A stretch of 28,104 bases of DNA, from positions 1-28,104 of the IMG/VR virus record IMGVR_UViG_3300032219_001957; one strand, given 5' to 3'. Below are positions 2,857 to 26,469 of this stretch, one piece after another. The translations under genes were made by a program, and so were the position numbers. The number at the start of each line of letters is the position of its first letter. Position 1 is the stretch's first letter. The notes beneath the pieces are model-generated. The model made no database searches and was not told where the DNA came from. It saw only the letters and a list, made by a program, of their open reading frames with translations. The stretch comes from a virus (Duplodnaviria; Caudoviricetes).

Positions 2857-3140
2857 TGGTTCCGGATGTCGGATTTGAACTGACGACCTACCGCTTACCT
2901 TACCACTTCGACTTTCGGCGCCGACTTTCGTCGTTCGTGGTCTGGACTTTGCCTTCACCGTTGCTTGCGCTTTAGGTGCCTGCCGTCAAGTCTCTACACC
3001 TTCAACAGTATTTCTACTGAAGCTTGGCTCGGCGTTATCATTTTACAGACTTCGCCGACTTTGACAGGTTCTACTCCCACCGTTTCCAATGGGGCACTCG
3101 TATATTCAAGGCGGTTGCTCTACCCCTGAGCTAATCCGGA
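2857..3140 (-). tRNA. tRNA-Thr(TGT), intron-containing (exons 3140..3108 and 2898..2857)
   Basis: Joined exons give TCCGGAT/ATCCGGA acceptor, ACCGC-CT TGT AA-GCGGT anticodon arm and CCA. Confidence 0.9.
2899..3107 (-). ncRNA. group I intron, 209 nt, compact IC3 (Azoarcus tRNA-Ile-like) type, no ORF
   Basis: Core motifs GGTGTAGAGACT.GACGGCA, CACCTAA, GGTGAAGGCA.AGTCCAG; P1 CTT|G-AATATA-CGAG with U.G at splice site; terminal G. Confidence 0.92.
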
Positions 3141-4598: not shown

Positions 4599-5159
4599 TT
4601 AGGACAACAAAATTCTACTGTGTTTGGGAACGCCCGCTAACAAATATTCCATTTGATCCGCAAGAATGTTTCTGCTTTGTAGGATCATATTTTCAAAATG
4701 TGATGGCGCATAAGGGACGTATAACAGTTCCATACGGGCTTCTTTTAGCGTTTTGCTTCCTTTATTGGAGTTACAGGTTTTGCATGCAGTGATACAGTTA
4801 AGCCAAGTGTTTTGGCCGCCCCTACTTTTGGGGACAATATGGTCCCTACTCAGGTTATTAACATTGGGGAAATGTCCACCGCAGTACGCACAAACATTCC
4901 TATCTCTACCGAACAGTGTTCGGTTGGATAATGCCACAGTTGCATGTTTGTGTGGGTTGAAACCCTGGCCCTTGATCGCAATTATACTAGGAGTTTCGAT
5001 GTAACTCATTGTACCATCTTGCTGAATGCCGCCCCGATATTTAGCCACAATTTCACCCATGCTCCAAGCTACAGATTTTGTGGCGTGGTATGCGATTGCA
5101 TCATCATATCCTATCCATTGTCTAGGTGTTCCTGAAATATCCAATGCTAATACGGGCAC
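4599..5159 (-). CDS. HNH endonuclease (McrA-like, HNH_5 type)
   Basis: LFGRDRNVCAYCG...SRDHIVPKSRGG...WLNCITACKTCNSNKG; GTG start with AGGAG RBS. Confidence 0.92.
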   Translation of the reverse strand: MPVLALDISGTPRQWIGYDDAIAYHATKSVAWSMGEIVAKYRGGIQQDGTMSYIETPSIIAIKGQGFNPHKHATVALSNRTLFGRDRNVCAYCGGHFPNVNNLSRDHIVPKSRGGQNTWLNCITACKTCNSNKGSKTLKEARMELLYVPYAPSHFENMILQSRNILADQMEYLLAGVPKHSRILLS

Positions 5160-5206
5160 GATAAACTCCTTTTTAATTGGTACTTGTACCTCTATTTACT
5201 ACAAAT

Positions 5207-5246
5207 TGGCGGGTCATGAGAGATTCGAACTCCCGACTACTGGTTT
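5207..5246 (-). pseudogene. orphan 3' half of a tRNA
   Basis: AAACCAG-TAGTC-GGGAG-TTCGAAT-CTCTC-ATGACCC-G-CCA; the 5' half is replaced by the upstream region of the endonuclease gene. Confidence 0.8.
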
Positions 5247-5259
5247 GATAAATAAACAT

Positions 5260-5949
5260 ATGAATACTTGTAAACATTGTAAAAATATCATCCCACCAGT
5301 TAAATATAAAAAACTATTTTGCACGAAAAGTTGTGCGGCAAAATTTAATAATTTAAATCGATCTCCTCGAACCTATGAATCAAAACAAAAAACATCTGCT
5401 ACTTTAAAAAATTTAATCGTCACAGGAGCGATACCAACACCTATTCCCCCAAAAAGATATCCATATCCTTATACTAAATTATACGGGCAATATATCTGTC
5501 ATTCTTGTGATAAGAATTTTTGGCAAATCTCTGCTGGGCAAAAATGCTGCTCAATTTCTTGTCGAGACAACATTCGTTCGCAAAATAAATGTAAGAAAAC
5601 GCAAATTGCGTACTACAATAAAAATGACAACTGTATTGTAAATTTACAGTCTACATGGGAAGTCAAAATTGCAATTTGGTTAGACGATAATAATATTGTA
5701 TGGTCTCGTCCATCTAAACGTATTAAATGGTACGATACTACTCTACAAAAATACAGAACATATCTTCCTGACTTTTATCTCCCAAATTATGATTATTATT
5801 TAGATGTTAAAAATCCAGTTAAAATGGAAGAGGATAAGGATAAACTTACTCAATTAATTTCTCTTATGCCTTTGTGTGTAGGTAACATACCAGAAATTAA
5901 AAAATATGTGGAGGGCCTGACAGGGGTCGAACCTGCATGTATCCATTAG
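5260..5949 (+). CDS. PD-(D/E)XK-type homing endonuclease with Zn-binding motifs (ORF track start 5026 is too early)
   Basis: QSTWEVKIAIWLD...YLPDFYLPNYDYYLDVK; CxxC repeats; ATG 5260 follows TAAATA; 3' end overlaps a tRNA antisense. Confidence 0.82.
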   Translation: MNTCKHCKNIIPPVKYKKLFCTKSCAAKFNNLNRSPRTYESKQKTSATLKNLIVTGAIPTPIPPKRYPYPYTKLYGQYICHSCDKNFWQISAGQKCCSISCRDNIRSQNKCKKTQIAYYNKNDNCIVNLQSTWEVKIAIWLDDNNIVWSRPSKRIKWYDTTLQKYRTYLPDFYLPNYDYYLDVKNPVKMEEDKDKLTQLISLMPLCVGNIPEIKKYVEGLTGVEPACIH

Positions 5950-5986
5950 CTTTCTCTTGGTTCGAAGCCAAGCGGCATACAGACCC
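5909..5986 (-). tRNA. non-canonical tRNA-Arg(TCG), D-loop displaced 3' of the anticodon arm
   Basis: GGGTCTG/CAGGCCC-T-CCA; CTTGG-CT TCG AA-CCAAG 7 nt after acceptor; AGCTAATGGATA before T-arm. Confidence 0.75.
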
Positions 5987-5992
5987 AATATT

Positions 5993-6089
5993 TGGTAGTA
6001 GACCAGGGATTCGAACCCTGCCGTTCCAGCCCATCTGACCAGTCTCCGGGAATTATAAAGCCCCGCCGCACAACCAAGTGCTGTCTACC
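5993..6089 (-). tRNA. tRNA-Ile(TAT)-like gene with long variable arm
   Basis: GGTAGAC/GTCTACT-A-CCA; CGGGG-C-TT TAT AA-T-TCCCG; ~25-nt variable region. Confidence 0.7.
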
Positions 6090-6092
6090 ATT

Positions 6093-6175
6093 TGGCGGAT
6101 AGTATAGGATTCGAACCCATGTTCTCTTTCGAGCCGCCTTATCAAGACGGTGCCTAACCATTCGGCCAAAGCGGC
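6093..6175 (-). pseudogene. chimeric tRNA: Ile(GAT) body with non-matching Ser-like 3' acceptor strand
   Basis: 5' GCCGCTT cannot pair with 3' ACTATCC-G-CCA; D, anticodon (TT GAT AA), variable (CTC-GAAA-GAG) and T arms intact. Confidence 0.7.
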
Positions 6176-6226
6176 AAATAAATCCTTTATGTTTTTACAG
6201 GCATACGCTGGAATGACCACACTAGC

Positions 6227-6769
6227 TCACCCTCCTTTTTCTTTCCAACGATGCTTTTGCTTCATTATTTCTGAATGTCTTTTTTTGTACTCATCCGAAA
6301 AAGGTTTTCTTTCTCTAGATTTTGCCTTTTCTGAAATTTTAGCGCGAGTTTCATCAGAAATTGAATGACCTTTCTGACCTTTCATTTTACAAGAAATTTT
6401 TTGTTTTTGCTCCTCAGACATTGGTTTGCCTTTAGTAGCTTCACTTCTAATAATGCTATATTCTTTTTTAATCGTTTCGTATAAACGAGCATTTATATAA
6501 CGATATTGTTTTGATGTAGAACCTTTCATAAGCATTAAAGCATGGAGCATTTTAACATAATTTGGTTTATTATTTTTATTGATTTTAACTAATAAAACAT
6601 GACATACGAAATGTTCTTTCGCTGTCAATAAAACCAAATTATCTTTTTTATTACTTCCTCCCAATGATTTAGGAATAACATGATGGTTTTCAAAATAGCC
6701 TAGTTTTCTGTCTCTATTTTTAGAACGCGCATTTTGTATAATGTCATGGTATATTTTTTCGTAGTTCAT
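6227..6769 (-). CDS. HNH homing endonuclease with NUMOD3 repeats
   Basis: ENHHVIPKSLGGSN..NLVLLTAKEHFVCH; KGKPMSEEQKQKIS and HSISDETRAKIS. Confidence 0.92.
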   Translation of the reverse strand: MNYEKIYHDIIQNARSKNRDRKLGYFENHHVIPKSLGGSNKKDNLVLLTAKEHFVCHVLLVKINKNNKPNYVKMLHALMLMKGSTSKQYRYINARLYETIKKEYSIIRSEATKGKPMSEEQKQKISCKMKGQKGHSISDETRAKISEKAKSRERKPFSDEYKKRHSEIMKQKHRWKEKGG

Positions 6770-6812
6770 AAAAATCCCTTAACATTATTTATTCCTTTAA
6801 CACTAGGTAAGC

Positions 6813-6989
6813 TTATTTTGTTACTACTTTTTTAAGCGCATCTTTTCGCATAAGCATAACTCTGACGTTGCCCATGCGAGTCACTCTAATATATTCTACA
6901 CCTTCAATAATTTCTGGATTCTTGAGGTCAATATCTGAGCATTCAACTTTTTCTTTATTCCAGATATTTTCAAATGTCAATGTTTTCAT
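6813..6989 (-). CDS. small hypothetical protein, 58 aa (not in ORF track)
   Basis: MKTLTFENIWNKEKVECSDIDLKNPEIIEGVEYIRVTRMGNVRVMLMRKDALKKVVTK; GGAG RBS upstream. Confidence 0.7.
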   Translation of the reverse strand: MKTLTFENIWNKEKVECSDIDLKNPEIIEGVEYIRVTRMGNVRVMLMRKDALKKVVTK

Positions 6990-7057
6990 CACGCAACTCC
7001 ATTAAATTTTGGGGTGACAAATATTTATCGAACTCTAAACAAATAATAAATAATAAT

Positions 7058-7918
7058 ATGTATAAACTAATAAACTGCGCTATTTGCCATCGTGACTTTA
7101 ATGGTCAAATATCAGGCAGTCATCTAAAAACTCACGGCACAAATATTCGTGACTACGAACTAAAATACGGCCCAACACGCGACCCTCAACTTATAATCGA
7201 TACCAAGCTTGGTGGCAAGAAAGGAGGAGGCGGAAATCAAAAATCCATTGATGCCAGCAAAATCAAGAGCCAAAAACAACAAGAAAAATATCTATTAAAT
7301 CCAAAAATTTGTTTTACTTGTTCTGAATTGATCCCGTATAATAATCGGTATAATAAGTTTTGTTCTCATTCTTGTTCTGCTATATCTAATAATAGACAAC
7401 GAATTGAATCTGGCTGGACTTTGTCGCAAGAAAGTAGGGATAGCATTCGACACAAACTTTCGAAGCCATCGATCTTTTTTGGACCGTATAGCAGGATATC
7501 TACTAAAACTTGTAAATTTTGCAGAACCCAATTCATTACACCGACTACTAATCAACCTCAAGTATGTAAGAATTGCCAACATCTAAAATGGAATAATAAT
7601 AAAGATCAGTACTCATTTAGATTTAATATATTTAATTATCCTGATTTGTTCGATTTAGATAATTTAACCAAAATAGGATGGGTAGCATTTGGCGGGAAGC
7701 GAGGAGGAAAGAAAAATGTTAATGGGTTATCCCGTGATCATCGCGTCTCGGTAAATGAAGCAAAAAAATTCAATTATGATCCTCACTATATATCACATCC
7801 ACTAAATTGTGAACTAATGCCGCACCATCAAAATAATAAAAAGAAAACAAAATCATCACTATCTTACGAAGAACTAGTTAAATTAGTTGACGAATATGAT
7901 AATAGGGGTGACCACTGA
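7058..7918 (+). CDS. HNH-type homing endonuclease with Zn-binding motifs (ORF track start 6974)
   Basis: SRDHRVSV...ISHPLNCELMPHHQNNKK; CxxC motifs; ATG 7058 lies 5 nt after TAAATA. Confidence 0.8.
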   Translation: MYKLINCAICHRDFNGQISGSHLKTHGTNIRDYELKYGPTRDPQLIIDTKLGGKKGGGGNQKSIDASKIKSQKQQEKYLLNPKICFTCSELIPYNNRYNKFCSHSCSAISNNRQRIESGWTLSQESRDSIRHKLSKPSIFFGPYSRISTKTCKFCRTQFITPTTNQPQVCKNCQHLKWNNNKDQYSFRFNIFNYPDLFDLDNLTKIGWVAFGGKRGGKKNVNGLSRDHRVSVNEAKKFNYDPHYISHPLNCELMPHHQNNKKKTKSSLSYEELVKLVDEYDNRGDH

Positions 7919-7979
7919 GAAGTTTCACTCAGACTATAACTTTCACAGAGTTAGGTGCCTATTTTACACTATGATCACC
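7904..7979 (-). tRNA. tRNA-His(GTG)
   Basis: G-1 GTGATCA/TGGTCAC-C, loop CT GTG AA; atypical T-loop TGAAACTT; ends CCT rather than CCA. Confidence 0.85.
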
Positions 7980-8000
7980 CCTATTATCACATTGATCCAC

Positions 8001-8122
8001 GGGATACATTTTTTAGACGAATGCTCTACCCCTGAGCTACTATACAATATGTTTCCATATCATACAGGGTGGATTTGAACCACCGACCAACCGTTTTCAA
8101 AATATTTTGCTGTTAGTATCCC
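8001..8122 (-). ncRNA. YrlA/Y-RNA-like circularly permuted tRNA mimic
   Basis: Terminal stem GGGATAC/GTATCCC; order T-arm, acceptor stem closed by a GAAA loop, D-arm. Confidence 0.75.
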
Positions 8123-8128
8123 AAATTT

Positions 8129-8204
8129 TGGTCTGGGTAGCAGGATTTGAACCTAGACCTCTTGACTCCAGATCAAGAACGCTACCAAGTTACGCTATAG
8201 AGAG
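8129..8204 (-). tRNA. tRNA-Pro(TGG) with defective 5' acceptor strand
   Basis: D-arm GCGT-AACTTGGT-AGCG, loop TC TGG AG, 3' TACCCAG-A-CCA; 5' strand CTCTCTA is the end of the HNH ORF. Confidence 0.65.
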
Positions 8205-8656
8205 TTATTCTTTTTCCAAGATTCTATATATGAAAGAACCTTATCTTCAATTAATGATCGGTACTTACTATGCCAATATTGATGATGCGTTGGGCATAGC
8301 GGTATTAAATTTAATGAGTGATTATTTTTCTTGTTATGATCCATATGGTGGACTGCGACTATTTTATCTTCACCGCATACAACACATTTTCTTTCATGAT
8401 GTTCAAAGCAGGTTGTTTGGTATCTTTCTGGCTTCCAATTGCCGTGGTTTTCCCCTGTTCTGAACAATTTATTAGCGCAAGCGTGGGAACATGATCCTTT
8501 CGACTCTCGCCAATTAAAAATTGGATTATCGCATATTTTGCACAATCTAATATTATCAGGATGCAAATGGCAGACGGCATCATGTCTTGAAACACTGTGT
8601 GGGAAAATTAATTTCTCACAATGCTTGCATTTAATTTTTGATGATTGCAGTAACAT
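8195..8656 (-). CDS. HNH homing endonuclease
   Basis: CVVCG...VAVHHMDHNKKNNHSLNLIPLCPTHHQYWH; AGGAG RBS. Confidence 0.92.
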   Translation of the reverse strand: MLLQSSKIKCKHCEKLIFPHSVSRHDAVCHLHPDNIRLCKICDNPIFNWRESKGSCSHACANKLFRTGENHGNWKPERYQTTCFEHHERKCVVCGEDKIVAVHHMDHNKKNNHSLNLIPLCPTHHQYWHSKYRSLIEDKVLSYIESWKKNNSL

Positions 8657-8708
8657 AAATTATCTCCTGATTGTATTTATCACAAACGGAGAGATTTGAA
8701 CATCAATT

Positions 8709-8745
8709 CAAGCTGTGCCGTCTACCAAGTTGACAATATACCCAG
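8709..8745 (-). pseudogene. 5' half of a tRNA-Pro
   Basis: CTGGGTA-TAT-TGTC-AACTTGGTA-GACG-G-CACAG-CTTG then breaks; T-loop remnant GTTCAAATCTCTCC follows. Confidence 0.7.
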
Positions 8746-8846
8746 TTAATTCTTGACTGCCCGCCCCCAACCACGCTAGCAGCCTTGCTCAGCCTTGAAG
8801 TAGCTGTGCCCCTATAACTTTTGACGCCTTAGTGCGTCGATAGTTC

Positions 8847-9245
8847 TTACAAATCTAATGCTGTTAAAAGCTTTTTCATTACTAGAGTATTAGGATCACG
8901 AAACTTTTCAGTATCTTGAAACCCCAAAAGAACACCTGCTTGTGTTACTGCACCACTACGGTATATACCAGCCATGCAGTGTACTACAACATTCATTCTA
9001 TTGTCAAGTGCATGTACCAACAATCTAGCAATTTTTTCTGCTTGCTCATCATTGATTGGTGTAGCCCAAGACAATTGTTCTTCTACATCATCAAATTTAA
9101 ATCTATGTACTTCACGAAAATTACGCTTAGACCTAGGAAAATCAACTATAGGATCTACAATCTGTATAAGCATAGCGTTAGGTCCAGGCTCAAAATGATG
9201 ACCTGCTTGAATATCTTCAAACGAAACATTTTCAATCCAAGGCAT
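8847..9245 (-). CDS. protein-tyrosine/dual-specificity phosphatase family protein
   Basis: VVVHCMAGIYRSGAV = HCxxGxxRS P-loop; FDD acid loop. Confidence 0.88.
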   Translation of the reverse strand: MPWIENVSFEDIQAGHHFEPGPNAMLIQIVDPIVDFPRSKRNFREVHRFKFDDVEEQLSWATPINDEQAEKIARLLVHALDNRMNVVVHCMAGIYRSGAVTQAGVLLGFQDTEKFRDPNTLVMKKLLTALDL

Positions 9246-9264
9246 GATTTTGTCCTTAAAAATT

Positions 9265-9341
9265 TGGTAGAGACAGCCGGGATCGAACCGGCGACCTCGG
9301 GCTTATGAGACCCGCGTTACTTCCAACTGAACTATGTCTCC
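9265..9341 (-). tRNA. tRNA with CAT anticodon (elongator Met or Ile2)
   Basis: Cloverleaf, loop CT CAT AA, CCA; no C1:A72 initiator mismatch. Confidence 0.9.
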
Positions 9342-9375
9342 ATATTATACAACAGATAAAATGATTATTTGTCAA

Positions 9376-9452
9376 TGGTACCCTAGGGGAGATTTGAACT
9401 CCCAATTCCTACGTGCTCAACGTAGTGACTCTACCAATTCGTCCACTAGGGC
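9376..9452 (-). tRNA. tRNA-Leu(GAG) lacking the long variable arm
   Basis: CTACG-TT GAG CA-CGTAG, 5-nt variable loop, A73, CCA. Confidence 0.85.
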
Positions 9453-9459
9453 ATTAATT

Positions 9460-9550
9460 TGGCAGTGAGTGAGGGATTCGAACCCTCGCGCCGTATAATA
9501 CGACCATCATCTTTCCAGGATGCTCCCTTAAGCCTCTCGGGCAACTCACT
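9460..9550 (-). tRNA. tRNA-Ser(GGA)
   Basis: Type II cloverleaf, loop CT GGA AA, G73, CCA. Confidence 0.93.
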
Positions 9551-9551
9551 A

Positions 9552-9626
9552 TGGTGTTCAGTACTGGAATTGAACCAGTGACCTCTATCGTGTCAAGATA
9601 GCGTTCTTCCGCTGAACTAACCGAAC
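9552..9626 (-). tRNA. tRNA-Val(GAC)
   Basis: Cloverleaf, loop TT GAC AC, CCA. Confidence 0.93.
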
Positions 9627-9632
9627 AATCTA

Positions 9633-9706
9633 TGGTGCTCCCAGCTGGTAACGCTCCAGCTTCTCGGCTATACCAAAGCCGTGTAATTCTTTTATACTAT
9701 GAGAGC
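9633..9706 (-). tRNA. tRNA-Thr(GGT)
   Basis: Loop TT GGT AT; atypical T-loop AGCGTTA; CCA. Confidence 0.85.
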
Positions 9707-9712
9707 CAATAG

Positions 9713-9821
9713 TGGAGCAGCTAACTATCTACCTGAGTAGACCTTATTAGCGGGTCACAAATAAAGAAGTATGTAGGGGCTCAACTTTATCGTCTAGCTC
9801 AAAAATTTGCTGTTAGCATCC
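9713..9821 (-). ncRNA. putative ncRNA sharing the GGAT(A/G)CTAACAGCAAA 5' motif with 8001..8122
   Basis: 5' GGATGCTAACAGCAAA; 3' GTTAGCTGCTCCA can pair with it; no tRNA-like domain. Confidence 0.45.
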
Positions 9822-9827
9822 TTAAAC

Positions 9828-9907
9828 TGGCACGCCCGGAAGGCTTCGAACCTTCATGTATCCAGTTAACCTTTCAACTGGTTCGTAGCCAGAGGGTATA
9901 CAGACGC
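9828..9907 (-). tRNA. non-canonical tRNA-Arg(ACG), D-loop displaced 3' of the anticodon arm
   Basis: GCGTCTG/CGGGCGT-G-CCA; CTGG-CT ACG AA-CCAG; GGTTAACTGGATA before T-arm; same layout as 5909..5986. Confidence 0.75.
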
Positions 9908-17814: not shown

Positions 17815-18465
17815 TTAATATTTTCCTGATGCTAAAACTATACGACAAACATGTTCAAGCCGTTCTAGGTGTTCATAAGCACGCCATGGACTAGTATCTA
17901 TAGAAACAACGCCGTGGCCCTTGATACCTACGATATCATATAGCATATTTCCATCTGAGTCAAGTCCCAAATGTTCATGGCATTTGGTACCCAATTCTTC
18001 AGATATTGGTGCTACTACACCCACACTGGGTGCTACTCGGGTATACCGACTTAGTTCTGGAAAGTCATTGACCAATTCATCTAGTTTTATTCCCGCGTGC
18101 ATAGCAGCAACAATATATGTTGGATGAAGGTGAACTACAACCCGTATATCATTGCTTCCCATTTCTTTTTGTAATCCAAAGTGTAGGGGCAATTCACCAC
18201 TGGGCTTTAAGTTTTTGCTGATATCAGTATACGGCATTTCATTACAAGTATAATTGAAATTTGCAGTGCCCATTCCGCTTCGTATAGTCCGGCTAATCCC
18301 AATTTTTTTAAATTGGTCGGGTTGTAGGGTTTGCTTTCTAACACCACTGGGGGTTATATAGAAATAATCATGGGCTCGGTCGCGCATGCTGATATTACCA
18401 TCACGGCTAGTAATCCAATTTCTATTGTAAGCGTCGGTTAATATTTCGCAAATCGTTTCTAGCAT
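17815..18465 (-). CDS. class II aldolase/adducin family protein (intact copy)
   Basis: SRDGNIS, ITPSG, PSGELPLH, VVHLHP, GHGVV...LERLEH. Confidence 0.92.
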   Translation of the reverse strand: MLETICEILTDAYNRNWITSRDGNISMRDRAHDYFYITPSGVRKQTLQPDQFKKIGISRTIRSGMGTANFNYTCNEMPYTDISKNLKPSGELPLHFGLQKEMGSNDIRVVVHLHPTYIVAAMHAGIKLDELVNDFPELSRYTRVAPSVGVVAPISEELGTKCHEHLGLDSDGNMLYDIVGIKGHGVVSIDTSPWRAYEHLERLEHVCRIVLASGKY

Positions 18466-18861
18466 TATGTAGTCCTCAAGATAGTTATCATACGTTTAGC
18501 AAGCTCTTGGAACCATTGAGCATCATGTCCCCTAGTAGTTTCGGCAGCTACTCCAATACGCACGCCGGATGTTTCTACAAAACTCCTAGTCTCACCTGGA
18601 ACTCCATTCTTGTTAACTGTAATACCGTGTGTTTCAAGTAAATCCGCATATTGTCGACCACTTAGGTGTTCTTTACGAAGGTCTAACGTAAACATATGCG
18701 ATTTAGTTCCACCACTTACCACATCAACCCCTGTATCCAAAAAAGTCTGTGCCATTGCTTGCGCGTTAATCTTAATTTGTTTTGCGTATAATTTGAAATC
18801 AGGTTGTAGTGCTTCATAAAAGCACTGTGCTTTGGCTGCAATTACATTCATCAATGGCCAC
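18465..18861 (-). pseudogene. glyA: serine hydroxymethyltransferase C-terminal fragment
   Basis: PLMNVIAAKAQCFYEA...VVSGGTKSHMFTLDLR...ITVNKNGVP..TSGVRIG; N-terminal PLP-binding domain absent. Confidence 0.88.
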
Positions 18862-19419
18862 AACCCCATGTCCCTTGATACCTACAATATCAAATTTGAT
18901 ATTGCCTGCTGAGTCTAATTCCAAATTGCAATGACATGCATCAGCAAGTTCTTGACTGATGGGTGCTACATCTCCTACATTGGGTGCTACCCTTGTGTAA
19001 CGATTGAGTTCTGGAAAACTATCACTGATTGTACTCAAATCAATACCAGCATGCATGGCTGCAATACAATAGGTCGGATGAACATGCACAACTACTCGTA
19101 CATCATCCTTGTGTTGCCCCATTTCTTTTTGCAGTCCAAAGTGTAGTGGAAGTTCTCCCCTAGGCTTTAGATTTTTGCTAATATCAGTATACACTAATTC
19201 TTTGCTTACATGATATGATCGAGGAGGTTGGTCATAGTAACCTTTCTCAATGCCAATCTTTTTGAATTGATCCGGTTGCATTGTCTGCTTACGCACGCCC
19301 GACGGTGTGATATAGAAGTGATCACGGTCGTGATGACGAATAGAGATGTTGCCATCTCTACTGGTTATCCAATTGCGTTTGTACGCATCGACTAATATAT
19401 CACAACAGGTTTCTAACAT
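18814..19419 (-). pseudogene. class II aldolase/adducin family protein, C-terminally truncated paralog
   Basis: Aligns with 17815..18465 up to GHGVVAID, then runs out of frame into the glyA sequence. Confidence 0.82.
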
Positions 19420-20387: not shown

Positions 20388-21476
20388 TTAAAGTTTGCAC
20401 GACTCGCAGCCATCTTCCTCGTCAAAATTAATAGGCTCTAGTGTTTCAGATGGGTAATCTTCTTTAAGTGATTTACTTCCTTGTTTATTCACCAAACTGT
20501 AATAGAAGGTCTTGATTCCGAGACGATGTGCTTCCATTAGGTTTTTAGCGATTAGGGTAGTTGGTATTTTACGGTCCGGAAAATGTGCTGGATTATAAAA
20601 AGTATTCACCGAAATACTTTGATCAACATAGGCCGCTAACACAGCCGCTGTTTTCAAATAATCAGCACAGTCCTTTTGGTCCCACATTAATTGATACTTT
20701 GATTTCAATTTATGATACTCAGGAACTACTTGTACAAATGATCCTGCTTTGCTTTCTTTTACTGAAATCAAAGACATCGGCATTTCTATACCGTTAGTCG
20801 AGTTAATAACTACTGAGGAACTTTCCACGGGCGCGATAGCGGAATTTGTAGCATTACGTACCCCTGATATTATCATGCGGGCCCGCAGAGGCTCCCAATC
20901 TAATTCCGGAGTAAAATCGGCTAAGTCATTGACCCCGTTGGCGCGTAGTTCCCAGGGAAAAATACCCTTACCATATCTAGTTTGGTCACTATTCAAACAT
21001 TTTCCCCGTTCTTCGGCAAGTTCAACAGACATTTCAGTCAAATAAAAGGTTTGATGTTCCATCCAAGATTTTACTTCTTGAAGTGAGTCTTGATTCCCAT
21101 ATTTTAGGCCCCGCTTGGCATGCCAATACGCCAAATTAGTAACTCCAATGCCCAATGGACGAATCTCATCATTGCTTAATTTAGACTGGATAGATAAGAA
21201 ATCTTGATAATCAAGTATGTTATTGAGGCTACGGTGTAAGATTCTACAGGCTCGGCGCATATCTTCTGGGTGTCTAAAACTCCCCCAATTAATGCTTCCC
21301 AATGTACATAGGGATATTCGGCCGGTATCATCATCTAATCTTTTAAAACTTTTTGTGGGCAAAAGTATCTCGCAATTATGGACAAGAATGTTGTCGGCAA
21401 AGAAACACTTTGTTTCAGGGACTGATATGTCAAATACATCAGTTGGCTCTACTGCAATCTTTCTAATTTTAATCAT
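20388..21476 (-). CDS. nrdA: NrdA part 3: IntC2 (21476..21375, 34 aa) + C-terminal extein
   Basis: VFDISV..FFADNILVHN|CEILLP; LGIGVTNLA, APVESSS, KTFYY, terminal CESCKL. Confidence 0.95.
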   Translation of the reverse strand: MIKIRKIAVEPTDVFDISVPETKCFFADNILVHNCEILLPTKSFKRLDDDTGRISLCTLGSINWGSFRHPEDMRRACRILHRSLNNILDYQDFLSIQSKLSNDEIRPLGIGVTNLAYWHAKRGLKYGNQDSLQEVKSWMEHQTFYLTEMSVELAEERGKCLNSDQTRYGKGIFPWELRANGVNDLADFTPELDWEPLRARMIISGVRNATNSAIAPVESSSVVINSTNGIEMPMSLISVKESKAGSFVQVVPEYHKLKSKYQLMWDQKDCADYLKTAAVLAAYVDQSISVNTFYNPAHFPDRKIPTTLIAKNLMEAHRLGIKTFYYSLVNKQGSKSLKEDYPSETLEPINFDEEDGCESCKL

Positions 21477-21610
21477 ACGCTAATTCTTCCTAATTTGTAT
21501 TCTGAATTGTTTTTACAAAATTCTTCTTCGTTAGTAACCCTAACATTTTTTTCGCCGTTGTTATACCAACGATGTTTTGATGAGTGTTCGGCTGCAATTT
21601 TTCTTTGTTC
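21473..21610 (-). pseudogene. C-terminal remnant of a homing endonuclease
   Basis: Startless frame EQRKIAAEHSSKHRWYNNGEKNVRV...YKLGRISV; its TGA overlaps the nrdA part 3 ATG. Confidence 0.7.
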
Positions 21611-21611
21611 A

Positions 21612-22781
21612 TTATTTTTCAATACATAACTCGTCAGTTTCTACTAATTCATCAGCCCTAACATATCCTCTGTTCTTAGTGAAGACCCGATGATCGCCTG
21701 TGCAGCGTAAAACATTCCCAGTTTCGTCTTCAATCTCGTATAGTTCAGTAACTGACTTTGTTTTGATTGCCGCAGACACATTTTCCCAGGAAACTTCGCC
21801 GTTCTTAAAACTTTTAATTTTTGAGTTAGTCAGGGCTCCTAGCTCAAATCTCTCAACGGCACTAGACATAGACATTTGTTCAATGTCTCCATTCTCGTGC
21901 TGGAAAGTAATTTGTGTATCACCGGTTACACAACAAAGATTACTTTGGTATATAGGATCAACCTTCGTATCAAATGGGCCCTGTCGCTGAACATTGTCGA
22001 TATATGTTAAATATATTCTACCTGTGTCAGTTCTTTCTTTTAGTATTCCGCCCTTGAATACTTCCTCAGCACTCATTGTTTTCTTTCGAATATCAGTGCG
22101 TTTTTCGTATGTTACATATAGGGTCTCAAATAAATCAATGTCGCTATAAAATGCCTCATACAGGTCAGGAACTTCATTGGGATCAAAGAATGTAATATTA
22201 CCTTGCTCTTTGAACCTGCGCCAAAAGAATGCTGATAATACTACATTATAGTCCATGTGCCTAACACGAGTTTCCTCAGTACCTTGATTATTCTTTAATA
22301 CAATCAAATCATCAAACTGGTAATGCCAGATGGGATAGGTAATTGTTGCGCTAGCATTACGAATACCACCTTGGGAGTTGTGAGTTAACACCATAGGGCC
22401 TTCGGCGCTTGCCGAGGCAAAGAAAGTATGAGTATCTTCTACTGTGATATCAATATATCCCAGATCGTTTTGTTGATTGGTATGAGCAACCAATAATTTA
22501 GTGAATCCAATTTCTGTGAGCACCCGATCTTCTACTGTAAGTTCCTGTGGTTTCTTTTGTACGAAGGAACCTGAATCTGACCAAACCATTATAGGATGAT
22601 TAATCGAACAGTTCAGTATTACTCCGTTTTGAAATTCCAATCGAACTTGATCATCATGTTTGACGATAGTGTCCCATTTGTTAGTGACTTCTTTAAAGAC
22701 AACAAACCCCTTCTCAGTCATAGTTTTAATCTTCATGCCCACTACTAGGTCTTTAATTTGAATCTTTTTAGTTTTTGCCAT
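21612..22781 (-). CDS. nrdA: NrdA part 2: IntC1 (22781..22377, 135 aa) + middle extein + IntN2 (21932..21612, 106 aa)
   Basis: YIDITVEDTHTFF..VLTHN|SQGGIRN...YQSNLC|CVTGDT...CTGDHRVFTKNRGYV. Confidence 0.95.
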   Translation of the reverse strand: MAKTKKIQIKDLVVGMKIKTMTEKGFVVFKEVTNKWDTIVKHDDQVRLEFQNGVILNCSINHPIMVWSDSGSFVQKKPQELTVEDRVLTEIGFTKLLVAHTNQQNDLGYIDITVEDTHTFFASASAEGPMVLTHNSQGGIRNASATITYPIWHYQFDDLIVLKNNQGTEETRVRHMDYNVVLSAFFWRRFKEQGNITFFDPNEVPDLYEAFYSDIDLFETLYVTYEKRTDIRKKTMSAEEVFKGGILKERTDTGRIYLTYIDNVQRQGPFDTKVDPIYQSNLCCVTGDTQITFQHENGDIEQMSMSSAVERFELGALTNSKIKSFKNGEVSWENVSAAIKTKSVTELYEIEDETGNVLRCTGDHRVFTKNRGYVRADELVETDELCIEK

Positions 22782-25535
22782 TTAATTACTCCACGTAAAT
22801 ACTTTATTACCGCAATCCCAATACCGAGTATACCCGTTATTTTTCATGTTTTCCCATTCACTTAGACTATCATCATATAGAGACAATAACTTTCTAAGTT
22901 TGTGTTTTTGATATTTTGTCCTATGCGCCAGCCGCCCATTTTCAATATACCAATAATTGGGCGTAGTTGTATGACTTAATGTCATGCCTATCTTGGCGTA
23001 TACATCACCTGTATTCCATCTTAGGTCTGCATAACTGATAACTGATTTAGGGAGCACAGTTGATGTAAAGTGCGAAAATAATCTTGATGCCCCACCCACT
23101 ACTGAATGTTGAGTTGCATACCGAATTAATTCCCATTCATAATTTCTATTATATCTAGCCCTAGAAAATGACATTACTGCGACTAATTCATTTTCATATT
23201 TTAATCCAATTCTCACTGAAGCTGGAGCAGAACCTTGAATGTGATGCTGCACCATGAATGATTCGTAATCTACTGATTTAACTGGTACGATAACGCATTT
23301 CCTAGCAAAAACCTTGCGTTGTTTTCCCAATTTTGCCAAAATCCTATTTTTTACAATTTCAAATTGGTTAGATAGTTCATAGTCTGTTATATGAATCAGT
23401 TGAATACCCTTTTCTAATGCCAGGTTACTTTTTTTTGCATGATAGTACTTATCTTTGATATAATGTTCACTGTGCCAATATAACCCATCAATCTCTAATC
23501 CTATTTTAAATTCCGGAAGATATATATCTATCTCTTTCCCATCAAGTACAGTTCGATCACTGCTAATATGATGGAGATTGTGTTCTTTTAAAAAATCAAT
23601 TAACTTTAGTTCGAAGCTAGATATTGTAATATGTGGGCGGGTTATATTATGTTTTTTATAATATTTGAGCACAGTTGACCAAGCAATACCCAAACTTTCT
23701 GCTAGAACTGGCGAAGGTACATTTTTGTTTTCTTCTAACCACTGAGCATCATCAAGTTTATCATAAATGTTTATGTCTTTCCTAGCAGAAAGGGCACTAA
23801 TTCTATTGTTGGGTAAAAGTAATGCTGTACTTACCCCATATTTTTCTATGTTAGTAGATACTATTTTAGAATATACTTCTTTGTTTGATGCTGGGTTTAC
23901 TGTTCCATATCTCTCTAGGTTAGTCGTAATTCGTTTTTTATTGGCTTCTTCTGTGTTCGCTGGATTAGCAATACCATATTCCTTTAAAAACTTTTGCCTT
24001 TGGGCATTTACATATTCAGTGTTTTGTCGCGGATGCTGTACACCATAATTAATTATAGAGGTGTTTTTCTTTTTAGTTTGAATCTCGGCCGATTTAAACC
24101 CATCTTCCCCATAATTTCTGATTAATGTTGATGTCTTTTTACCCATTACATCTTTATTGTTAGACACGCATGATTTTGAGCAAAAGGTCGTGTACCCCTT
24201 TTTAAAAGAAATAAAGGTAGTTGGTGCTTGGCATTCTTGGCACAGTCGTGGGCCTAATAAATCATGATAACATTGGTATGCCTGTTCTTTTGTTACACTA
24301 TGTTTTTCCAGAGCCCTGGCATTTAAATTACCATTGGATGCCAACAAGAAATCTTGAACGAATTTTCTATTAACTGTTTGTTTATTAATCCAATCATTTT
24401 CCCACATTACAACTAAGTTGTATCCCATATCCTTAATATAGTTTTCTTTTTTTAATGTTTTTTCATACAATTCTTTGGCAGTTAGGTTTGAAAATGGGTT
24501 TGGTTGATCTGTTTCTCTAAACACTGCTAGATTACCGTGCCAAATATCGCCGTGGAATTCATATATGGTATTGGTGGCCGCGCAATACCCATCCGCTCTA
24601 TACCTAGTATTTGGAATAACATATTCACCCCCATTTAATGCATGTTGGATATCAATCCCATGGGTATTGGTTATAGATTCTATCCACTGGATGCACCGAT
24701 GTGAATAACCAAAATTATATTTTATACCAATTTCATGTTTTCTTAAATAATTTAATACAGTGGTCGCAGAAATACCCAGTTCATCAACTAACTGCTGTGT
24801 TGATTTATTGTGCGTAATATACTGCTCGTACAACCAGTCTGGATTCTCAATCAAAGGAAGAACATTGGAGATTTTAATTTGGCTGGTATGCCCCACCCCA
24901 TAGCTATGCAGGCGATCTTGTTGATCAGCCAGATATCGAATTTTTGCAAATTCTTTGGCAGTTTCAGACTGGGAATAATGATCAACACCATATCGTAAAC
25001 GGTAAGTATTGCGGCTCTTTGTTTTATACTCATCAGTTTGGGTGTAGTATTCGACACCATAGTTTTTGAGATTGTGTTCCTTATTTCTAATCTTACTTTC
25101 AGGTGTTGCGAAATAATTATTGACCCCAAACTTATTGTAAACGCCCTCCTGACGCAATTGTTTTATTTTCTCTTTGCTGTACCTAGTAGCAATAGTTTCT
25201 TGTATTTTTTCCACGGCACCAGACGCAAGGCGCTTTTCATTCCGGCATTCTAGTGTCACTGGATTTTTTCTTGAGCAAGAACTACTACAAAATATATGGT
25301 ACTTTCCTGAATTTAAATGAAACTTCGTATGGTTCCCACAGTAACACATGGGCCTAGTTTGTTGTTTATTCCTTAACGCCCACACCTTTTCGTCAATTGT
25401 GGAAAAATTTGATAATTCAGGTGAATTATTCATCACACTGATAAACTCCAAATGCAGGCGCTTCAAAAATCTATGTGAGTTTGATTGAATGCGTCTGTGG
25501 AATTCATCGACTAATTCATCGAACGTCATCTTCAC
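22782..25535 (-). CDS. large free-standing homing endonuclease with two Vsr/DUF559-like nuclease domains
   Basis: ADGY..IYEFHGDIWHG and IDIYLP..GLEIDGLYWHS; many (K/R/N)YGV repeats; C-terminal WELIRYA..GGASRLF..SYADLRW domain. Confidence 0.85.
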   Translation of the reverse strand: MKMTFDELVDEFHRRIQSNSHRFLKRLHLEFISVMNNSPELSNFSTIDEKVWALRNKQQTRPMCYCGNHTKFHLNSGKYHIFCSSSCSRKNPVTLECRNEKRLASGAVEKIQETIATRYSKEKIKQLRQEGVYNKFGVNNYFATPESKIRNKEHNLKNYGVEYYTQTDEYKTKSRNTYRLRYGVDHYSQSETAKEFAKIRYLADQQDRLHSYGVGHTSQIKISNVLPLIENPDWLYEQYITHNKSTQQLVDELGISATTVLNYLRKHEIGIKYNFGYSHRCIQWIESITNTHGIDIQHALNGGEYVIPNTRYRADGYCAATNTIYEFHGDIWHGNLAVFRETDQPNPFSNLTAKELYEKTLKKENYIKDMGYNLVVMWENDWINKQTVNRKFVQDFLLASNGNLNARALEKHSVTKEQAYQCYHDLLGPRLCQECQAPTTFISFKKGYTTFCSKSCVSNNKDVMGKKTSTLIRNYGEDGFKSAEIQTKKKNTSIINYGVQHPRQNTEYVNAQRQKFLKEYGIANPANTEEANKKRITTNLERYGTVNPASNKEVYSKIVSTNIEKYGVSTALLLPNNRISALSARKDINIYDKLDDAQWLEENKNVPSPVLAESLGIAWSTVLKYYKKHNITRPHITISSFELKLIDFLKEHNLHHISSDRTVLDGKEIDIYLPEFKIGLEIDGLYWHSEHYIKDKYYHAKKSNLALEKGIQLIHITDYELSNQFEIVKNRILAKLGKQRKVFARKCVIVPVKSVDYESFMVQHHIQGSAPASVRIGLKYENELVAVMSFSRARYNRNYEWELIRYATQHSVVGGASRLFSHFTSTVLPKSVISYADLRWNTGDVYAKIGMTLSHTTTPNYWYIENGRLAHRTKYQKHKLRKLLSLYDDSLSEWENMKNNGYTRYWDCGNKVFTWSN

Positions 25536-26469
25536 TGTTCTCGTCTAGTACCTCTACCCAGGTATCTGGAGTAACACAGCAAGACCTTAAATCCCCAAAC
25601 CATTTTTTTAAGAATGGCACCATCCCTGTATGCATAATTTCCCCGCCCCGAATAGCAGAGCCCAATGGGCGCAATCTACCAATTTCTAACCCAATGCCAG
25701 CACGCTTGCTAGCATATTTGGCCATCATTTCGCCTGAAGCAAAGATGCTGTCGAGATTATCATCACTACGAATAAGAACACAAGATGAAAATTGCTTAGT
25801 GGGTGTACCTAACCCAGCAAGGACAGGAGTAGCCAATGTAAAAAGACCATCACTGGCAGCGGTGTAATATTCTTTAATATATCGCATACGAGCATTATTT
25901 GGTTCTTCTTTGTGAAACACTGTGGCGGCGGCTACAATGTACCGGATTTGCGGGGTTTCATAGATTTTCTTTGTGCTACGATTTTTTACTAGATATTTTT
26001 CGATTAATTGCTCAATTGCGGCATAACTATACTGCTCATCCTTTTCATGGTCTAACATAGCATCCATGCGATCCCAATCTGCCTCAGTATACCATTCTAA
26101 CAATTCTTGGGTGTATAACCCCGTAGCTACATTTGCCTTTATAACTTCATATAGTTTTGGTACAGCATACCGTCCATATACATCTTTTCTCAGCATAGAT
26201 AATCTGTGTTTTCCCGCTACATATTGGTAGTTGGTATGGCCTACATCTGGATTAGTTTCAACGTCGATCAAATCTACAATTGCGCGAAGAGTGATTCCAT
26301 CGATTTCTTCGGTAGTAATACCATCATAAAAGTTTGGGTGCGCTTTGACTTCTACCATCGATGGGCTAACATCAGATATACCTTGGCAAATTTTAGCCAC
26401 ATGATTTTGCCATTTTTCTAATGCAAGGGGCTCTTTTGTACCATTCCGTTTGGTGACCATAATTTTCAT
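25516..26469 (-). CDS. nrdA: NrdA part 1: ATP-cone/N-terminal extein + 20-aa IntN1 (25578..25516)
   Basis: VTKRNG ATP cone, ATPVLAG, QFSSCVL, AGIG, DLRSC|CVTPDTWVEVLDENSEDDVR-stop. Confidence 0.95.
   Translation of the reverse strand: MKIMVTKRNGTKEPLALEKWQNHVAKICQGISDVSPSMVEVKAHPNFYDGITTEEIDGITLRAIVDLIDVETNPDVGHTNYQYVAGKHRLSMLRKDVYGRYAVPKLYEVIKANVATGLYTQELLEWYTEADWDRMDAMLDHEKDEQYSYAAIEQLIEKYLVKNRSTKKIYETPQIRYIVAAATVFHKEEPNNARMRYIKEYYTAASDGLFTLATPVLAGLGTPTKQFSSCVLIRSDDNLDSIFASGEMMAKYASKRAGIGLEIGRLRPLGSAIRGGEIMHTGMVPFLKKWFGDLRSCCVTPDTWVEVLDENSEDDVR

Follow-up and report, generated by a model that had tools for sequence, protein, structure and literature searches.

Two putative tRNA-Arg genes in a phage tRNA array belong to a phage-borne class with exchanged internal segments

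Canonical bacterial and phage tRNA-Arg is a type I cloverleaf in which the D-stem closes its own hairpin and the variable loop has 4-5 nt. In the red alga Cyanidioschyzon merolae some tRNA genes are permuted, their 3' half preceding the 5' half, and processing restores a normal tRNA. Two loci of the IMG/VR virus record IMGVR_UViG_3300032219_001957 (Duplodnaviria; Caudoviricetes) have yet another arrangement. Both are minus-strand genes inside a phage tRNA array of the stretch analysed here, positions 1 to 28,104 of the record, a 28,104-base fragment (8% complete) called the window hereafter; they are designated w1 (anticodon TCG) and w2 (anticodon ACG). They share with canonical tRNA-Arg the acceptor, the anticodon stem sizes, U33, A37, the T-arm GGTTCGA, the CCA end and a GG followed by A, but the 5' strand of the D-stem and the D-loop lie on the 3' side of the anticodon arm. 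Genes with this layout are termed rewired in the following. Like the permuted genes of C. merolae they reorder tRNA segments; unlike these, their ends are normal, two internal segments are exchanged and the mature RNA is expected to keep the order of the gene.

Other described tRNAs approach the rewired layout from different sides. The D-armless animal mitochondrial tRNA-Ser(AGY) likewise has no D hairpin, and covariance models delete its D-arm, according to the available part of PMC7609411. The mitochondrial forms presented there are short and flexible, without a D-loop and without the contact between GG and the T-loop, whereas rewired genes keep the D-loop nucleotides elsewhere in the chain and are 75-77 nt long. 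The (8/4) and (9/3) allo-tRNAs and the phage (8/4) tRNA-Ser and tRNA-His are also natural, non-standard shapes, known from bacteria and from phage tRNA clusters and overlooked by standard tools; in the portions of Mukai et al. (PMC5389517) that could be consulted, they alter the lengths of the acceptor and T stems yet keep the four-arm cloverleaf order. A literature search (subscription journals lay outside its coverage) returned no description of the rewired fold, including in the available parts of PMC7609411, PMC5389517, PMC5764925, PMC6409571 and PMC9976931. The rewired class is a new variant of tRNA, with a putative function in translation.

We consider it fairly probable that w1 and w2 represent a conserved class of segment-swapped phage tRNAs, whose RNAs are predicted to be L-shaped, to be charged with arginine by the host arginyl-tRNA synthetase (ArgRS) and to read CGN codons. 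The initial annotation of the window had argued that two copies which differ in sequence and keep one layout are not products of decay. This view is strengthened by the recurrence of the layout, with covariation, in sets of 17, 120 and 96 distinct sequences from other phages.

Anatomy of the two loci and standard tRNA models

Both loci have a 7-bp acceptor stem, a 7-nt anticodon loop with U33 and a purine at 37, a T-arm and a 3' CCA, while the D-arm hairpin (10-25) is absent between position 9 and the anticodon stem. The initial annotation had correctly placed the acceptor stems, T-arms and CCA ends, the anticodon hairpin that starts 7 nt past the acceptor stem, and the D-loop-like strings found in both copies where the variable loop belongs. 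The features, in the order of the transcript, are as follows.

5909..5986 (-): w1, putative rewired tRNA-Arg gene, anticodon TCG (5965..5963); 75 nt plus encoded CCA (5911..5909); body 5986..5912
5980..5986 (-): w1 acceptor 5' strand, pairing with 5913..5919 over 7 bp with one G.U; discriminator T at 5912
5974..5979 (-): w1 T8, A9, T and GCC; GCC plays the 3' side of the D-stem (places 22-25), and its GC pairs with GC at 5949..5950
5956..5972 (-): w1 anticodon arm, 5-bp stem and 7-nt loop CTTCGAA
5951..5955 (-): w1 linker, A followed by GAAA, joining the anticodon stem to the returning D-stem strand
5937..5950 (-): w1 returning D-stem strand GC, D-loop-like TAATGGATA (places 13-21, including G18, G19 and A20) and CAT (places 46-48)
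5920..5936 (-): w1 T-arm GCAGG / TTCGACC / CCTGT, from the sequence and the Rfam tRNA alignment
9828..9907 (-): w2, putative rewired tRNA-Arg gene, anticodon ACG (9886..9884); 77 nt plus encoded CCA (9830..9828); body 9907..9831
9901..9907 (-): w2 acceptor 5' strand, pairing with 9832..9838 in 7 pairs, three of them G.U including 1-72; discriminator G at 9831
9894..9900 (-): w2 T8, A9, T, ACC and C; ACC pairs with GGT at 9869..9871, and C stands at the place of 26
9877..9893 (-): w2 anticodon arm, T.T followed by CTGG/CCAG; loop CTACGAA
9856..9876 (-): w2 linker, T followed by GAAA, returning strand GGT, D-loop-like TAACTGGATA and CAT, from the sequence and the family alignments
9839..9855 (-): w2 T-arm GAAGG / TTCGAAG / CCTTC, from the sequence and the Rfam tRNA alignment

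A single G separates GCC from the anticodon stem in w1. The spacing between the anticodon and T stems is 19 nt in w1 and 21 nt in w2; this segment has no self-pairing and pairs back to positions 11-13. The acceptor strands of both loci stand in normal 5'/3' order, unlike those of a permuted tRNA gene with its 3' half first, and the acceptor columns covary across the family alignments described below. CCA is encoded by both copies as well as by 11 of the 12 canonical tRNA genes of the window. The common layout of w1 and w2 lies far beyond what chance would produce, given its recurrence with covariation in the three sets of sequences from other phages.

The Rfam tRNA model (RF00005) aligns w1 and w2 end to end (model positions 1-71), reducing the 15 D-arm positions to 4 nt and placing an insert of 16 nt (w1) or 18 nt (w2) in the variable region; w1 obtains 34.7 bits, above the gathering score of 29. 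The 12 tRNAs that ARAGORN reports in the window are minus-strand genes; at w1 and w2 its default and mitochondrial modes report nothing. A relaxed threshold yields only senseless folds with 2-nt or 4-nt anticodons at the two loci. An alignment to the standard cloverleaf was one of the outcomes that the initial annotation had named as refuting its proposal; the default, relaxed and mitochondrial modes of ARAGORN give no sensible cloverleaf and, since Rfam deletes the D-arm as well, no standard cloverleaf explains w1 or w2. Rewired genes are missed by ARAGORN in 58 of 60 cases in one sample and 114 of 117 in another, Rfam 15 has no family for the fold, and the public labels are tRNA-Phe, tRNA-OTHER or none; in the Streptomyces phage Mildred21 one copy is annotated as tRNA-Phe(gaa) and another as tRNA-OTHER. 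If the RNAs are charged and used, phage annotation would change: it would follow from the ARAGORN misses and the public mislabels that phage tRNA repertoires are undercounted, above all for Arg and Ile.

The family and the helix enclosing the anticodon arm

Matches to the two loci obtained with blastn are short and strong; they come from phages of Streptomyces, Microbacterium and Rhodococcus and from a 462-kb phage that is uncultured, and most are unannotated. A pattern impossible for a canonical tRNA retrieved 14 IMG/VR loci. An anticodon-blind pattern listed at least 119 IMG/VR loci, with about 720 stretches estimated in the collection, and a third pattern, in which the D-loop-like part was left free, gave at least 119 further loci and an estimate of about 850 in IMG/VR. 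A covariance model (R1) was built from the first 17 sequences; w1 and w2 score 82.6 and 95.4 bits with it, both being members of its seed. The covariance-model search of phages advocated in the initial annotation widened the range of anticodons: Mildred21 has additional copies with GAU and with UCU, a 198-kb phage yielded UCU, and GAU copies occur in LR756500 and in the crAss-like Kehishuvirus tikkala, where the rewired gene occupies an unannotated 90-nt slot from tRNA-Trp to tRNA-Met. The anticodons of 121 distinct sequences are UAU (53), ACG (23), UCU (16), GAU (14), UCG (7), CAU (5), CCU (2) and UAC (1). The class is not specific for Arg, as GAU, UAU, CAU and one UAC anticodon also occur. 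All 7 acceptor pairs can form in 109 of the 121.

The class is found mostly in viral contigs. Genome contigs of 185,579 species (596 Gb) gave 64 pattern matches in 63 loci, 27 of which are real: 26 fit the fold by script and one, from Mesorhizobium sp. Root552 (L174), by eye. The other 37 are without the fold and look like chance matches for an 18-base pattern, as gauged from an estimated chance level. A cellular origin was considered and set aside, all fitting contig matches except L174 being in metagenome-assembled contigs, mostly within dense tRNA arrays; these copies may come from either mis-binned phages or prophages. Taken together, the matches identify w1 and w2, on sequence criteria, as members of a large phage-borne class of putative tRNAs.

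Two loci have unusual anticodons or neighbours. A contig of a metagenome-assembled genome of Desulfobacterota (L199, 1469..1625) carries tandem rewired genes with TCG and then GCG, an Arg anticodon otherwise unseen in the class. A rewired gene with the Val anticodon TAC (L090, 89..165) adjoins a canonical tRNA-Val(GAC).

Pairing in the proposed structure amounts to 96.4% in the alignment of the first 17 sequences; shuffled columns give 82.3%, with none of 500 shuffles attaining the observed value, and slid partners give 31-45%. The helix formed by columns 11-13 and 37-39, which encloses the anticodon arm, has double changes at three of its three pairs, and RNAalifold returned the same helix unprompted, together with the acceptor, anticodon and T stems. 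The larger alignment, made with MAFFT, holds 120 distinct sequences (its locus filter omitted the Mildred21 GAU copy). The helix is 99.7% paired there and double changes again occur at all three pairs: 11-39 is CG in 77 sequences, AU in 24, GC in 16 and UA in 3; 12-38 is CG in 63, UA in 29, GC in 12, AU and UG in 1 each, with 14 gaps; 13-37 is CG in 105, GC in 13, UA in 1 and otherwise in 1. A mutual-information scan over all column pairs puts its top 12 pairs, 11-39 and 12-38 among them, entirely in the proposed stems. Pair 15-31 is T.T in 98 of the 120 sequences. The predicted enclosing helix is well supported by this covariation. In the window it consists of ACC/GGT (3 bp) in w2 and GC/GC in w1, so that the nesting of the anticodon arm inside a D-stem-like helix, put forward in the initial annotation with these same pairings, is upheld by the compensatory changes and by RNAalifold.

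The companion helix TAT/ATA of that proposal did not hold. It can form in w1 and w2, yet it is only 65.6% paired in the family, and most Ile-type members lack it; of the 120 sequences, 52 do not form pair 9-48 and 72 do not form pair 10-47. As a family feature it was rejected, other members having TCA, AAA or AAC at this site. Since TAT/ATA is not conserved, T8 and A9 can be read as the usual U8 and A9.

The chain then begins with acceptor 1-7, U8 and A9 and passes directly into the D-stem strand 22-25, a base resembling 26 and the anticodon arm 27-43. A base resembling 44 and the GAAA lead to the D-stem strand 10-12/13 and the D-loop (A14, R15, G18, G19, N20, A21), and the chain is completed by CAY (places 46-48), by the T-arm and by the CCA-bearing 3' strand of the acceptor. 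The D-stem encloses the anticodon arm because its 10-12/13 strand comes only after that arm. The best reading of these sequences is a segment swap, in the order 1-9, 22-43, linker, 10-21, 46-48 and T-arm, that would keep the tRNA core. In a normal tRNA, where the D-stem stacks on the anticodon stem, the core brings together U8, A21, 46-48 and the 13-22 pair. By analogy with this standard architecture, the D-stem of rewired RNAs would stack on the anticodon stem with U8, 13-22, A21 and 46-48 as neighbours. Given such a neighbourhood, the three new joins (9 to 22, 43 to 10 and 21 to 46) would be short, and the core contacts U8-A14-A21, 15-48 and G18/G19 with the T-loop could still form.

The segment swap makes a prediction at the sequence level, namely that the purine after T-A and the pyrimidine before the T stem form the 15-48 pair. 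It was examined in the set with a free D-loop region, of which 96 of 103 distinct sequences were kept after simple stem checks. Places 15 and 48 are A-U in 65 sequences, G-C in 27, A.C in 3 and G.U in 1 (Fisher p 2e-19, uncorrected for relatedness). The G-C combination is found within the UAU, GAU and CAU groups, and both window copies have A and T at these places. A14, C46 and A47 are invariant (96 of 96), the D-loop-like region being free in the pattern, and GG is kept in all 85 parsed sequences where the pattern left it free. UCG-type members, including w1, have G and A at the places of 26 and 44 (columns 14 and 32).

Identity elements, tRNA repertoires and other explanations

Bacterial identity elements for Arg are A20, C35, U/G36 and A/G73, and for Ile U20 and A73, as given in the available part of PMC9976931. 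In rewired genes GG is followed by A in all 48 members with an Arg anticodon and by U in 72 of the 73 others, and the discriminator is A in 73 of 73 non-Arg members. This distribution fits the assignment of GGA to G18-G19-A20 made in the initial annotation, which had also named A20 with C35 as the main ArgRS identity set, in accordance with the bacterial set of that source. T33 is present in 120 and A37 in 121 of 121 sequences. Columns 23 and 47 are the strongest non-helix pair (0.91 bits). The relocated loop resembles the D-loop of the canonical tRNA of the same phage for that amino acid. By these sequence counts, the base after GG and the discriminator appear to follow the anticodon and to match the bacterial Arg and Ile identity sets. 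w1 and w2 have A after GG, C35 and G36, with T (w1) or G (w2) as discriminator; this describes the sequence, not the place of A20 in three dimensions.

The genomic setting is that of tRNA genes. Rewired genes lie on the strand of the tRNA array, and at 27 of 60 rewired loci the nearest canonical tRNA on that strand is no more than about 150 nt away; w2 stands in front of five successive canonical tRNA genes (Thr, Val, Ser, Leu and Met). In the 49-kb tRNA region of Mildred21, ARAGORN finds 38 tRNAs with CCU as the sole canonical Arg anticodon, and ACG, UCG and UCU exist only as rewired genes; likewise, GAU of Kehishuvirus tikkala exists only as a rewired gene. Rewired genes thereby appear, from gene content, to fill gaps in phage tRNA sets. 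The genes of the window use all six Arg codons, CGN accounting for 109 of 191 Arg codons. Within the array the RNAs would be processed by RNase P, and w1 and w2 would be charged through A20 and C35 before use on the ribosome.

A 437-kb IMG/VR phage (G001, 137837..137908; L034, 1501..1572) has a canonical tRNA with the loop CTCTAAA and the amber-reading anticodon CTA, and the same phage carries a rewired ACG gene.

If charged and used, rewired RNAs would be a widespread natural exception, and the tRNA core could be built from a different secondary structure. They would then allow a natural test of which features of the D-arm are read by ArgRS, IleRS, RNase P, EF-Tu, modification enzymes and the ribosome, and would offer a ready, unusual scaffold for engineered tRNAs. 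A broader proposal, to which we lend slightly less than even confidence, is that these genes form a natural class of non-cloverleaf elongator tRNAs, the first on bacterial ribosomes. A phage scaffold with an L-core made from a strand-swapped D-arm would have radiated to Arg (ACG, UCG, UCU, CCU, GCG), Ile (GAU, UAU), CAU and Val, and would have been kept because its connectivity or its gene sequence shields the tRNAs of the phage against host defences aimed at tRNA or against homing nucleases whose targets are canonical tRNA genes.

The RNAs could instead be tRNA look-alikes that are made and act outside translation, as decoys for an anticodon nuclease or a tRNA-binding defence protein or as partners of a phage RNA-handling protein. 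Mildred21 encodes an RNA ligase, a polynucleotide kinase and a Ro-like protein, a YrlA-like element lies 1.7 kb away in the window, and in the Microbacterium phage A3Wally a canonical ACG gene makes the rewired one redundant. To mislead an anticodon nuclease, however, an RNA would need neither a discriminator and a position-20 base that follow the anticodon nor an encoded CCA, and the class supplies anticodons otherwise absent from near-complete phage tRNA sets; we regard this explanation as unlikely. A smaller chance is given to rewiring at the DNA level, with the rewired copy as the spare gene of a homing endonuclease cassette that escapes the nuclease cutting the canonical tRNA gene. This possibility concerns the origin of the fold and leaves room for a working tRNA. 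Local gene orders agree with it: A3Wally has canonical Arg(ACG), an HNH gene (L002, 11996..12549) and rewired Arg(ACG) in succession, with 6 nt between the HNH and rewired genes; the HNH gene of Mildred21 (L226, 22932..23443) ends 1 nt before the rewired UCG gene; and in the window an HNH open reading frame (ORF; 6769..6227, minus strand) lies upstream of three odd tRNA-like genes including w1. In the 1.5-kb flanks of 117 rewired genes, by contrast, only 3 of the 102 ORFs within 120 nt bear a domain of homing-endonuclease type (HNH_3, SegE GIY-YIG and DUF559/MTES_1575), the base rate beside canonical tRNAs being not established. With 3 of 102 neighbours, homing-endonuclease cargo was rejected as a general cause, and the explanation is local at most.

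It is very improbable that the genes are permuted and that their transcripts are cut and re-ligated into an ordinary cloverleaf. Some of these phages do encode an RNA ligase and a polynucleotide kinase, but restoring the canonical order would take two cuts and two ligations inside the body, and the unprocessed chain explains the helix and the 15-48 covariation. Circularisation as in the red alga is inapplicable to genes whose acceptor strands already stand in the usual order. That the loci are tRNA pseudogenes, whether decayed or rearranged, or that they resemble tRNAs by chance is hardly credible. The failure of ARAGORN at both loci, the score of w2 under the Rfam threshold and two more odd tRNA-like stretches beside w1, one of them without acceptor pairing, would agree with decay; it is contradicted by the spread of the class, with copies numbering in the hundreds among unrelated phages, by compensatory changes that affect four helices as well as one tertiary pair, and by the complete acceptor stems of most members.

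Several observations weigh against a conserved, functional segment-swapped tRNA and temper our preference for it. w2 obtains 20.3 bits with the Rfam tRNA model, under the gathering score of 29, and its acceptor stem is weak, with three G.U pairs including 1-72; the D-like helix of w1 has just 2 Watson-Crick pairs. Nearest-neighbour folding prefers other structures (w1, -20.1 for the proposed fold versus -24.5 for the minimum free energy (MFE); w2, -15.6 versus -22.9 kcal/mol), with folding z-scores of -1.25 and -1.38; about 4 of the 12 canonical tRNAs of the window likewise lack the cloverleaf as their MFE structure. A3Wally has a canonical tRNA-Arg(ACG) about 400 nt from its rewired ACG gene, which makes the rewired copy redundant. 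The three-dimensional argument is inference only. The anticodon-blind pattern fixes GAAA, TAA, GG and ACAT and the third pattern GTAT, CT and GAAA, so that conservation of these columns is not evidence, and the shuffle counts and the Fisher p overstate independence because the sequences are related. The single-sequence MFE of w2 contains a hairpin CCAGTT/AACTGG, which was discarded as an alternative structure: inspected by eye in the alignments, w1, Mildred21 and the GAU members do not retain it.

Other features of the window

Several tRNA-like elements on the minus strand accompany the two loci. A tRNA-like gene of about 100 nt, directly upstream of w1 at 5993..6095, combines a T-arm and a CCA end with an acceptor stem of 7 bp, whose 1-72 pair is G.U, and a D-like hairpin of 3 bp. 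It also has a loop with TAT and an unpaired-looking region of about 27 nt; its sole Rfam match is tRNA-Sec at 20.7 bits (gathering score 47). The next stretch, 6096..6176, has a normal D-arm, a GAT anticodon loop, a variable-region hairpin CTC-GAAA-GAG and a T-arm; no acceptor pairing was found in it, and the Rfam tRNA model gives 32.8 bits over model positions 7-64 only. The YrlA-like element, at 7995..8114, scores 24.8 bits in Rfam (gathering score 69), and its T-arm and 3' acceptor-like strand precede the 5' acceptor-like strand and D-arm. No TROVE domain was detected among the 24 ORFs of the window that were tested. A weak tRNA match of 29.4 bits at 8132..8204 has C at position 33 and is without a convincing acceptor stem. 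Between tRNA-Asn and tRNA-Arg(TCT), 2919..3131 gives a group I intron-like match of 34.7 bits (gathering score 50), with no host gene visible.

Among the protein-coding regions, a plus-strand ORF of 307 aa (5026..5949) has no Pfam match and is the only long ORF over 5160-5910; its last 40 nt or so are antisense to the 3' part of w1. The large subunit of ribonucleotide reductase is spread over several minus-strand ORFs (20388..26469), broken by intein/Hint domains and also interrupted by an ORF of 917 aa that carries DUF7487 and HTH domains. A C-terminal piece of SHMT, 134 aa long, lies between two class II aldolase ORFs (17815..19419).

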